Shown here: positions 21,791 to 25,498 of the stretch, piece by piece
Layout of the letters: the number at the start of each line of letters is the position of its first letter
Numbering within the stretch: position 1 is the stretch's first letter
Origin: Candidatus Methylomirabilis sp.
GTDB lineage: Bacteria; Methylomirabilota; Methylomirabilia; Methylomirabilales; Methylomirabilaceae
Direction: 5' to 3'
DNA length: 25,498 nt
NCBI GenBank assembly: GCA_041498975.1
Contig: JBGQJI010000025.1
Span: forward strand, 1 to 25,498
Translations under genes and position numbers: made by a program
The notes under the pieces: model-generated
What the model saw: only the letters and a program-made list of their open reading frames with translations
What the model was told of the DNA's origin: nothing
Database searches by the model: none

Positions 21791-21996
21791 ATGGTCTCTA
21801 CTATACCGGGCTGAGACGCCGATGCAACGGAAAACCGGCCAAGCGCCGAACCGACTATGTACCCCGGACCGACATGGGTGGGGCACCGTTTCAAAGACGA
21901 TCTTCGAGAAACTTTCGATTGGTTTCCGTCTGCGTTGTGCGTATAATCCCGCCCTATGGCAATTTTGTATCGCTCCCATCAGGCTCCCACGAGCCG

Positions 21997-24216
21997 ATGA
22001 CAAAGGCCGCCTCGCTCCTGCCGCAACTGCTCCTCCTGGCGGCGGCCACAGCGTTCCTGCTCTGGTACTGGCTGAAAGAGAATCGCCCGGACGCCTCCGT
22101 CGCACCGGGCGCCATTTCCGAGCGCCGCTTCGTCCTGGCGAGCTTCGTCAGCCTCTTCCTCGAACTCCTCCTGATCCGCTGGGTGTCGTCCGAACTGCGC
22201 ATCTTCGCCTACCTGAAGAATTTCGTCCTGATCGCCTGCTTTCTCGGGTTCGGGTTTGGGGCCTACCTGGCCCGCCGACGCGTCCAGATGTTGACCCCCC
22301 TCTGGGGCTGCCTCGCCCTCGCCGGCATCACCTGGTTTTCCCGGCGGCAGCCGGCGTCGCTCTTTGTCTGGATCTCGGAAGTGATGGGGGAATTCGAAGA
22401 CGTGACGATGATGGGGAAGACGGTCTGGCTGAGCGGCGCCGACCACGTGATCTCCCTGGCCCTCTCCTGCATGGCCGTCGCCAGCACCTTCCTCCTGCTG
22501 ACGCTCATCTTCATTCCATTCGGTCAGATCGTCGGGCGGTACCTGGACAACTCGCCCAATACGATTCGGGCCTACTCGCTCAACATCGCCGCGAGCCTGC
22601 TCGGGGTCTGGGCTTTCACTACGCTGGCGTTCTTTTCCACGCCACCCTGGGCCTGGTTTCTCATCGGCTTGCTGCTCTGCCTTGGCCTGGTCGGGGCGGG
22701 GGCGAGGACGGTAGGGTTCACGATCCTGGCCTCGCTCCTCACGGCGGCCTTCCTCCTGGAACCCAGCAGTCCGTCGGAGTGGACGATCTGGTCGCCCTAT
22801 CAGAAACTCCGCCTGACGGAGTCCCGCCACAAGGATGAGGCGGTCGCCTACGAATTGGAAGTGAACGGCACGTGGTATCAGCGGGCGCTGGACCTTTCGG
22901 ACGGCTACATCGCAACCCACCCGGAGCTGTTTGCCGGAAAGCGCCTGGAGTACGATCCGTACAACATCCCGTTCTTCTTCAAGCCTCGCCCTGGCCGCGT
23001 GCTCATCGTCGGCTCCGGGATGGGGAACGACGTGGCCGGGGCCCTTCGTAATGGGGCGGGTCATGTGGTCGCCGTGGAGATCGACCCGCAGATCCTGGCA
23101 GAGGGACGCCGCCTCCACCCTGAGCGTCCCTACAGCTCGCCGAAGGTCGAGGCGGTCGTCAACGACGCCCGAAATTACTTCAAACACGCCGACGAGCGAT
23201 TCGACCTCATCATCTTCGGCCTGCTGGACTCCCATACACTATCCTCCAACTTCGCGAACATCCGCCTCGACAACTATGTCTACACACAGGAAGCGTTCAA
23301 AGAGGCGAAGGGGCTGCTCCGCGATGACGGGCTGATCGTCGTCAAGTTCGAGGTGCAGCGCAGATGGCTTGGCAGTCGGATGCAGGGGATGCTCACAAAG
23401 GTGTTCGGGCGGCCTCCGCTTCTCTTCAGAGATGAGGAAGGCGTCGGAGCGCGGGCCTTCGTCTTCGTGGCCGGGAATCCGGAGCAGATTCGCGGAACCC
23501 TCGATGCAGGTCCAGAGCTTGCGAGGTTCGTCAAGGCCAACGCAATGACATATCCTCCCGAGTCGATCACGATGGCAACGGACGATTGGCCCTTTCTGTA
23601 TCATCAGGGACGGTACATCCCCAGGATCTACCTGATCTTCTCTCTGCTCCTGGCGGCGACGGCCGTGGTGTTCACGCGCGGGTTTCTCAGTGGAGGGGTG
23701 GGCCGGAACTGGCACTTCTTTTTCCTGGGTGCCGCCTTCCTCCTCCTTGAGGTCCAGATCGTCAGCAGGCTGGCCCTGTTCTTCGGCACAACGTGGATCG
23801 TCAACGCGATCGTCATTTCCGGCGTGCTGGTCATGATCCTCCTCTCGAACTTCGTGGTCGAGCGATGGAGCAGGTCGAGCTATCCGCTTTTCTATGCGCT
23901 CTTGCTCGCCTCGATCTGCGCAATCTACCTCCTCCCCCTGGACCGCCTGTTCCTGACATCGGAGCTGGCCAAGGGGTTCGTGGTGGGGGGCCTGTTCTGC
24001 CTCCCGGTTTTCTTCGCGGGCCTCATCTTCATTACCAGCCTCCGCGCAGTGCCCCACAAGGATGCCGCCTTTGGCGCCAACCTCCTCGGCGCGATCCTGG
24101 GCGGGTTCCTGGAAGCGGTCTCATTCATCACCGGGATGCGCGTCCTGCTCCTGTTCGCCGCCGGTCTCTACCTCATCTCGGCAGCAGCCCTGCCGCGTCT
24201 GCGTCAGGCCCTTTGA
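21997..24216 (+). CDS. Membrane protein with a central spermidine-synthase-like SAM-binding domain
   Basis: TM bundles flank WSPYQK, VLIVGSGMGND, AVEIDP, VVNDAR, FDLIIFGLLDSH and ATDDWPF. TATAAT at 21942. Confidence 0.88.
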   Translation: MTKAASLLPQLLLLAAATAFLLWYWLKENRPDASVAPGAISERRFVLASFVSLFLELLLIRWVSSELRIFAYLKNFVLIACFLGFGFGAYLARRRVQMLTPLWGCLALAGITWFSRRQPASLFVWISEVMGEFEDVTMMGKTVWLSGADHVISLALSCMAVASTFLLLTLIFIPFGQIVGRYLDNSPNTIRAYSLNIAASLLGVWAFTTLAFFSTPPWAWFLIGLLLCLGLVGAGARTVGFTILASLLTAAFLLEPSSPSEWTIWSPYQKLRLTESRHKDEAVAYELEVNGTWYQRALDLSDGYIATHPELFAGKRLEYDPYNIPFFFKPRPGRVLIVGSGMGNDVAGALRNGAGHVVAVEIDPQILAEGRRLHPERPYSSPKVEAVVNDARNYFKHADERFDLIIFGLLDSHTLSSNFANIRLDNYVYTQEAFKEAKGLLRDDGLIVVKFEVQRRWLGSRMQGMLTKVFGRPPLLFRDEEGVGARAFVFVAGNPEQIRGTLDAGPELARFVKANAMTYPPESITMATDDWPFLYHQGRYIPRIYLIFSLLLAATAVVFTRGFLSGGVGRNWHFFFLGAAFLLLEVQIVSRLALFFGTTWIVNAIVISGVLVMILLSNFVVERWSRSSYPLFYALLLASICAIYLLPLDRLFLTSELAKGFVVGGLFCLPVFFAGLIFITSLRAVPHKDAAFGANLLGAILGGFLEAVSFITGMRVLLLFAAGLYLISAAALPRLRQAL

Positions 24217-24341
24217 GCGCTTGACACCCTTTCATCGAACCCACCGCTGTCGCGCTACGATCGCGCGGTCCGCTGATTACCCTGCCTTGCGTGTCACCAT
24301 AGCAAAAGCACTAACCGTTGCTACATTGGCGGTCTTAGAGA

Positions 24342-24438
24342 TGTCATTGCGAGTGACCAACGGGAGCGTGGCAATCTCGCCGTTCTCATCTGCGCTATTG
24401 CGGGATTGCTTCAGTCACTTCGTTCCTTCGCAATGACA
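24342..24438. repeat. REP-like palindromic element (least decayed copy)
   Basis: TGTCATTGCGA..GCAATCTCGC / GCGGGATTGC..TCGCAATGACA. Confidence 0.88.
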
Positions 24439-24558
24439 CCCTATTTAGTGTGTTTGTATTCATTCGGCAGACGCACTGACCTTGGCGCCCGGTCCATCCA
24501 AGCTCTAATCGGATTATGCGGACCAGCATTTGTCGGCCACGGCGGGGTCCGGAGAACC

Positions 24559-24587
24559 TTGACAAGCCCTCGAAAACCCGAAAGAAT
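24559..24587 (+). promoter_or_regulatory. Possible sigma70 promoter for the methyltransferase
   Basis: TTGACA-17 nt-AAGAAT (weak -10). Confidence 0.4.
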
Positions 24588-24628
24588 CGCCGCAGTCGAG
24601 GGAGGCGCAAGGACCAAGAGAGGGCAGT

Positions 24629-25276
24629 ATGGTTAAGTGGTTATTAAAACTCATGCACAAACCAATCTACGAAAGGCGCCTTGCTGTCTTAGCAAACAAG
24701 ATCGTCCCTCACCTTGAAATGCATGACATGGTGCTGGACGTTGGCTGTGGTTCAGGAATGCTGGGCGAGGCGGTACTAAAGCACAGGGGTTGTCCAAACG
24801 GCGTTACTTACCAAGGCCTGGACAAATCAAAGAGGGGCGGAGAGCCAATTGAAGTGCTTGAATACAAGGCGAGACAGTTACCCTTCGTGGATCAGGCGTT
24901 TGATGTCGTAATATTGGCCGACGTGCTGCACCATGAAGAGCAAGAGGGTGTTCTGCTCGGCGAGGCAGCCAGAGTGTCTAAACGACTTCTGGTGGTCAAG
25001 GATCACAAGCCAGAGGGGTTCTTGGGATTCTGGCGGGTATGTTTCTTGGATTGGGCAGCGAATAATCCTTATAATGTGAAATGTCTGTACCGCTATCATA
25101 CGAAGGAAGAATGGCATGCCATGTTTAAGGGATATAGCCTTATTCCGCTCTCGGAAGAGACATCACTCGATCTCTATCCGCCGTTATTCAACTTCCTGTT
25201 CGGTAGGCGGCTGCAGTATTTTGCAGTGCTCCAAAGACGGAACAACGCCGAACAAAGCGCTGCAGCGGACGGCTAA
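24629..25276 (+). CDS. Class I SAM-dependent methyltransferase (cassette-like, lower GC)
   Basis: VLDVGCGSG and LPFVDQAFDVVILADVLHH; the 3' end runs into the attC site. Confidence 0.93.
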   Translation: MVKWLLKLMHKPIYERRLAVLANKIVPHLEMHDMVLDVGCGSGMLGEAVLKHRGCPNGVTYQGLDKSKRGGEPIEVLEYKARQLPFVDQAFDVVILADVLHHEEQEGVLLGEAARVSKRLLVVKDHKPEGFLGFWRVCFLDWAANNPYNVKCLYRYHTKEEWHAMFKGYSLIPLSEETSLDLYPPLFNFLFGRRLQYFAVLQRRNNAEQSAAADG

Positions 25277-25303
25277 TCGCCGCCGCTGATCTCCGCGTTA
25301 GAC
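25247..25303 (+). mobile_element. Integron attC recombination site
   Basis: R'' GCCGAAC, 5 nt, L'' GCTGCAGC, GGACGGC-TAATC-GCCGCC, L' GCTGATC, 5 nt, R' GTTAGAC; 57 bp. Confidence 0.85.
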
Positions 25304-25355
25304 GCGAGAACCGCACCAATTGATGACTGGGATTGCGTCGAAGGGAGGAACACGC

Positions 25356-25498
25356 GTGTCAGAGAAGGAACCGGTGCTGTATCAGAGAGAAAAGGGAATT
25401 GCCCGGATTATATTGAATAGACCGGAGGCCCTCAATGCCATGAACACGGACGTGCTTCAACGACTGGCGTCCCTCCTTGACACAGCAAGGGGAGATGA
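25356..25498 (+). CDS. Enoyl-CoA hydratase/isomerase (crotonase) family, partial
   Basis: Not in the ORF track. RBS GGAGG and GTG start; MSEKEPVLYQREKGIARIILNRPEALNAMN. Confidence 0.88.
   Translation, partial: MSEKEPVLYQREKGIARIILNRPEALNAMNTDVLQRLASLLDTARGD

Follow-up and report, generated by a model that had tools for sequence, protein, structure and literature searches.

A methyltransferase cassette probably locked in place behind the remnant leader of a reverse-orientation integron in Candidatus Methylomirabilis

An 'inverted integrase group' of integrons is named in PMC3575428, and in the reverse integron of Treponema denticola (PMC3607928) each integron locus has one attI, next to intI. 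In archaea, attI sites downstream of intI have also been reported (10.1101/2022.02.06.479319). Inactivation of the integrase is common, with 43% of 1,135 homologues affected (PMC3108266), and CALINs are thought to arise through intI loss (10.1101/2022.09.11.507474, 10.1101/2025.06.18.660453).

Here we describe a window of 25,498 nucleotides, the whole of contig C25 in a Candidatus Methylomirabilis genome (2.68 Mb in 241 contigs, completeness 84.9%), in which a methyltransferase gene ends in an attC site (Table 1). Very probably, this gene is the first-position cassette of a relic integron of reverse orientation, likely fixed and with the predicted cassette promoter kept. A first-pass annotation of the DNA had left two options open, a cassette inserted at a chromosomal secondary site or the first unit of an integrase-less array. 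The second was the right one: there is an integron leader upstream, and the next gene is a crotonase cassette.

Table 1. Features of the locus at the right end of the window
Feature	Positions	Strand	Basis
Gene for a membrane protein that has a spermidine-synthase-like domain; flanks the slot on its left, chromosomal side	21874..24216	+	Start is the longest-ORF call
MITE-like insertion; REP-like hairpin enclosed by imperfect terminal inverted repeats of 18 bp	24297..24462	.	
Integron leader, made up of the intI tail, the predicted promoter and the left portion of the attI region; model positions 1-152 of 177	24463..24621	+	
Last codons of the deleted intI: SADAL, from ...RSPADAL; contains TTCGGC	24463..24478	+	
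Near-palindromic motif of the leader family, first of two copies	24515..24529	+	Alignment and sequence reading
Sigma70-like promoter, predicted Pc: TTGACA, 17 nt, AAGAAT	24559..24587	+	Consensus match
Junction left by a deletion that took the attI core together with the 5' end of the cassette itself; probable ribosome-binding site next	24619..24628	+	
Methyltransferase gene (SAM-dependent, class I; 215 aa; GC 0.50), the first cassette gene that remains	24629..25276	+	
attC site, 57 bp	25247..25303	+	Box layout, bottom-strand covariance-model score
Second cassette start: enoyl-CoA hydratase (crotonase) from ~25356, cut by the contig end	25298..25498	+	

The attC site has the layout first read from its letters. 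A pattern scan found boxes spaced 7-5-8 and 7-5-7, with AAC and GTT triplets; both extrahelical bases are present, as G25262 and A25269 of the top strand (C and T of the bottom strand), and the crossover point lies between G25297 and T25298. The methyltransferase ORF does stop inside the site, and R'' and R' do mismatch, because R' is the start of the crotonase cassette. A strict attC pattern scan of the 2.68-Mb genome gave three matches, two of them unconvincing, and a relaxed scan gave 39 lines that were mostly noise, so a covariance model was adopted. It was trained on 10 attC-like sites of relatives, with the window site left out; these were kept from 15 candidates picked by our own pattern scan, which left aside L098, two sites of more than 100 nt and, as misaligned or long, L114 and L138:3942. 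On the contig this model of our own picked out one strong site, the window attC, whose bottom strand scored 45.1 bits (E 3.7e-10) against 7.8 bits for the top strand; the second-best match in the window had only 12.2 bits. Folding and the model both give a strand-asymmetric hairpin on the bottom strand, and the folding energy is weak evidence by itself (z -1.83; 10 of 200 shuffles equally stable). The Rfam gathering scan of the window returned 0 matches. In population contigs, a G>A change at 25282 in the attC stem gives a bottom-strand G-T wobble.

The methyltransferase is an ordinary integron cassette, of a kind already known: its ORF ends at attC, its composition is foreign and its distribution is patchy. 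It is indeed AT-richer, as first noted, when set against the upstream gene (GC 0.50 vs 0.62; GC3 0.56 vs 0.82). It was found in none of the 17 genus relatives searched, and among 200 other genomes of the phylum there was a single match, at 34% identity. Relatives are nevertheless numerous, with 835 at E 1e-30 or better. We gathered 27 homologue loci and scanned 20 of them with the attC model; a 67% identical homologue elsewhere likewise ends in attC, and just two of the 20 loci, which carry one and the same gene, do so, which argues that the family is mostly chromosomal. No NCBIfam model scored above its cut-off for the protein, and one solved relative, 3cc8, is a weak match over 80 residues. 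The neighbours of non-cassette homologues include three UbiA-family genes, while two others matched nothing; on account of the UbiA-family neighbours, we offer as a tentative guess from context that the enzyme methylates in cell-envelope glycan or lipid synthesis.

Upstream of the gene, the stretch 24465-24619 turned out to be repetitive when the locus was searched against 40 relatives. The predicted promoter had been taken for the cassette's own; it belongs instead to an integron leader, conserved and present in many copies, whose place is after the 3' end of intI. A pattern of TTGACA, 17 nt and nAnAAT occurs in 54 of the 65 leader copies that span the promoter. As originally seen, the window contains no intI. 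A complete integron is not present in it, as intI is cut to five codons and the attI core is gone. The search for intI across the genome found no intact gene; besides the five codons at the window there is a 123-aa C-terminal fragment with a stop on C6, which is the best match and falls below the family cut-off. One leader copy of this genome adjoins that fragment. Given the completeness of the assembly, an intact intI may be unassembled. The REP-like element reported beside the cassette is real, with 61 BLAST matches in the genome; its hairpin core spans approximately 24342-24440, and G002 and G014 have no REP/MITE insertion at the corresponding place.

The hexamer TTCGGC at 24463 had been put forward as a possible left boundary. 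The hexamer is there, and R'' is complementary to it; with a single attC visible on the contig and no intI in the window, the locus could be taken for one cassette at a chromosomal secondary (attG) site (SALIN), bounded by TTCGGC and carrying its own promoter. We regard this as very unlikely. The hexamer is common, occurring in 34% of random 800-bp stretches of the same genome, and at the orthologous place G002 and G014 have TCCGGC or CCCGGC, so it was rejected as a boundary; it sits at the boundary of the REP/MITE insertion and belongs to the intI C-terminal codons SADAL. The flanks are not ordinary chromosome either, with an intI tail and leader on the upstream side and a cassette on the downstream side, and the right junction is the attI-crotonase junction of relatives. 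Finally, relatives have 24463-24621 at the orthologous locus with no methyltransferase behind it, and 19 of 20 genus genomes contain the stretch. These empty-slot alleles refute insertion at a secondary site.

The slot itself can be followed in relatives through the upstream membrane-protein gene, which has orthologues in six of 40 relatives, with a leader downstream in five of the six. The search for the empty site was thus successful, as the leader stands at the orthologous locus without the methyltransferase. The first cassettes at the slot differ: an RraA-like gene in G002, a BrnT pair in G005, and others in G009, G014 and G016. G021, from another family, has no leader at the slot, and a DUF255-like gene, recognised by eye, comes directly next.

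The first-pass annotation called the cassette solitary and the crotonase no typical cassette gene, and neither description stands. In G005 and G016 a crotonase directly follows attI, joined at the same G|TT, and the bases after the attI core before these crotonases are those that follow G25297; the crotonase of the window is thus a second cassette, and the methyltransferase is placed at the former attI junction. At the G005 slot the BrnT pair is followed by the crotonase. In the window the crotonase's own attC would be beyond the contig end, and in G005 and G016 it is a half site; the remainder of the crotonase gene was not found in the assembly. The contig shows one attC and ends at 25498, 195 bp past it. 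Because a DUF255 gene on C181 of the same genome, the probable right flank of the slot, has a further ORF and a half attC in front of it, the array probably continues there, with the linkage of C25 to C181 drawn only from synteny. In population contigs a near-identical methyltransferase is followed by a crotonase allele with many differences (25307-25498). This difference may come from recombination or from a chimeric contig end.

The leader family was defined by a search with a 177-position profile, which covered the fetched loci of 18 relatives and the whole of the window's genome (G000) and yielded 78 copies; the census loci had been chosen for earlier leader matches. G000 has six copies on six contigs, BLAST found the leader in the genus genomes up to 11 times, and copy number is 1 to 12 per genome, at several loci. 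The core is reached by 45 of the 78 copies. Among these 45, GTT stands at the core in 37 and the exact GTTRRRY in only 16; the information content of the columns is mostly around 1 bit up to the core and does not exceed 0.28 bit past position +6, and the copies carry 41 different downstream sequences. Judged from this alignment, the leader of relatives ends in attI, and conservation halts at the GTT core. Of the 50 leaders with at least 1.5 kb of downstream DNA, 19 are followed within 2.5 kb by a co-oriented attC, none is followed by an anti-oriented one, and 31 give no downstream match; the upstream count is seven of 53. Ten of the attC sites counted around leaders are the training set of the model.

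Could the leader be a regulated promoter that is mobile, with the palindromic motif as operator for a repressor, behind which cassettes merely gather, and not an attI at all? It does carry two near-perfect palindromes, one of them upstream of the -35 box (the second motif copy is located inside attI and is deleted in the window leader), and many copies have neither intI sequence nor attC. We nevertheless hold this explanation to be improbable, since conservation ends at the GTT core exactly where cassettes begin, the family adjoins intI 3' ends, and the left ends of the copies are ragged. When the profile-search copies were compared, no common left end was found, as a discrete mobile unit would have, and what is left of intI varies from nothing to 123 aa. 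A repressor could also bind the leader palindromes, which is compatible with the attI reading that we prefer.

A tree built from 53 leaders leaves 26 of its 50 inner branches open, with an unsettled bootstrap, and does not separate duplication from repeated gain. With a divergent leader as query, five near-complete genomes gave just weak extra matches. The leader-richest genomes are bins of 80-94% completeness, and the closed genome G008 has two leader copies in its fetched loci and 15 attC matches across the chromosome.

Several copies deserve mention in their own right. In G014 and G016, deletion between two near-palindromic 16-mers has left promoter-less minimal attI sites (L025 1629-1700; L024 7770-7844). 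In G002 the same RraA-like cassette start is found behind two tandem leaders (L012 1649-1760 and 2744-2829), through duplication or an assembly effect. In the window's own genome, leaders at G000:C42 2262-5273 (L200) and C218 317-900 (L202) are followed by low-GC or toxin-like ORFs, and C7 has an attC at 30334-30391 (L203) with no leader match on the contig.

The orientation of the ancestral integron is indicated by the intI loci of the phylum. A co-oriented attC lies downstream of the intI 3' end in 21 of 29 loci, and upstream in none. The tally includes two unpublished genomes, on whose sequence none of our claims depends. Beyond the intI 5' end the view covers no more than ~0.8 kb in these loci, and upstream arrays could escape it. 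The leader family directly adjoins an intI 3' end in six of 32 loci (E below 1e-20). None of the intI copies before these six leaders is a single full-length match: four are in two pieces and two are partial. Three intact integrases were found in the genus (two in G011, one in G018), and related but diverged leaders lie downstream of them. At the level of sequence, these data show that the window leader descends from DNA immediately 3' of intI, and that its integron ancestry is of the reverse orientation, with attI and cassettes past the intI 3' end on the same strand.

Some intI genes in the genus lie directly behind a dnaE2-like gene (G018, by Pfam; G010, by eye) or, in G011, directly behind a lexA-like 3' end (by eye); the loci concerned are L043 2574-3944, L053, L042 and L050. 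Because intI directly follows such genes, its position suggests SOS coupling through the operon.

The junction between leader and methyltransferase is where the window departs from intact copies. The window leader ends at model position 152, ~25 nt short of the core, with positions 153-177 missing, and is followed at once by the probable ribosome-binding site, which lies 7-9 nt ahead of the ATG. Among the 65 promoter-spanning leaders, eight end before position 166. A left core site GTTRRRY matching R'' is absent before the methyltransferase, having been deleted along with attI. With both attI and the left core site absent, precise excision is not expected, and because the window copy has lost intI and the attI core, the methyltransferase is likely fixed and probably locked in place.

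A perfect GTTRRRY does occur a little further in, as GTTAAGT at 24632-24638 (codons 2-4), and a cassette using it as left crossover would still be mobile. This is highly improbable, as the same bases encode the natural N-terminus, MVKWLL being found in four close homologues; there is moreover no attI sequence to the left of GTTAAGT, and excision there would strand the start codon. Nor did the contigs of four sediment runs contain a joint that skips the methyltransferase, with the qualification that contigs drop rare variants.

The same runs bear on the question of whether an assembly error in a metagenome bin created the absence of attI or the gene order. The attC is close to the contig end, and the population contigs carry a crotonase allele unlike that of the window at many places, both of which would fit such an error. 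The leader-methyltransferase junction, however, is spanned without a gap by contigs in all four runs, one of which may be the source of the assembly, and in three of the four the contigs extend through the methyltransferase and attC to the crotonase start. An assembly artefact is accordingly extremely unlikely.

Taken together with the fixed first-position cassette that we favour, the following history may be proposed. A reverse integron would have settled behind the upstream membrane-protein gene and captured the crotonase cassette first, making it older than the methyltransferase. The intI gene would have eroded down to its last codons, and the methyltransferase would have entered at attI by IntI-mediated attI x attC insertion, either before or after intI was lost. 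A deletion would then have removed attI and the 5' end of the methyltransferase cassette, and perhaps earlier cassettes as well, and the MITE would have landed last, at the left edge of the leader. Both methyltransferase and crotonase would be transcribed from the predicted TTGACA promoter.

A broader possibility, which we regard as doubtful, is that the integron is distributed in one Methylomirabilis-like branch. The 180-bp promoter-attI leader without intI would have multiplied into up to a dozen chromosomal landing pads, which would take up cassettes by means of an integrase acting in trans and express them, and deletion of attI, as in the window, would domesticate a useful cassette. On this reading the pads are dispersed and tandem, some of them having spread fused to an attC-targeting IS3-type end.

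An IS3-type element with OrfA and an integrase-like OrfB, recognised by eye, was observed at L178-L197 (e.g., L184 321-1578, G001:C133). At 13 of 20 loci, compared with a background of 12%, a distance of 13-22 nt (mostly 18-19 nt) separates its left end from the AAC of a preceding attC left half. The element looks attC-targeting; the right half was unseen at the one right end checked. In four places (L023 3252-3350 and 5662-5751; L024 6752-6836; L025 2518-2606) the IS3-type end is fused to a leader at the same 5-nt microhomology, behind three different half attC sites. It is possible that such fusion is a route by which leaders multiply.

We found no dedicated paper on integrons of this bacterial group, the genus being mentioned once or twice in other papers. 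Nor did we find a description of a dispersed multi-copy promoter-attI leader without intI, or a paper on multiple attI or attI deletion, in a searched literature that lacks most subscription journals; survey tables may already list such arrays. The window shows, to the base, an apparent SALIN arising from platform decay rather than from attG insertion, and such an origin bears on how counts of isolated attC sites are read. The 45 natural crossover junctions also supply a candidate attI/Pc family for the reverse integrons of an uncultured phylum; sites of this sort are seldom mapped. Should leaders that lack an integrase still take up cassettes, integrons would amount to a genome-wide network of promoter-bearing slots.

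Finally, we compare the locus with the known systems. The inferred ancestry of the leader shares with the Treponema denticola reverse integron (PMC3607928) the transcription of intI toward attI; it differs from that system in that intI is down to five codons and attI is deleted in the window, and in that the leader is present in 1 to 12 copies per genome. As in CALINs (10.1101/2022.09.11.507474, 10.1101/2025.06.18.660453), attC cassettes occupy a conserved position with no adjoining integrase and with variable content; unlike them, the window has one visible attC, the remnant of the platform is recognisable, and most sister copies retain both promoter and attI, 45 of the 78 reaching the core. 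A single attC and no integrase on the contig are also features of SALINs formed by attG insertion (10.1101/2022.09.11.507474), the class that an automatic scan would assign to the locus, but the insertion point here is the former attI junction before another cassette and not an arbitrary site. The Xanthomonas integrons with inactivated intI (10.1101/2025.06.18.660453) resemble the locus in their widespread integrase decay and fixed cassettes; there, nearly all genomes carry intI at a single ancestral locus (ilvD), whereas here the leaders are dispersed and sometimes tandem. Our verdict is that the window feature is probably a CALIN derived from an integron of the inverted-integrase type, and thus of a known kind, and that its unusual part is the dispersed, multi-copy promoter-attI leader.
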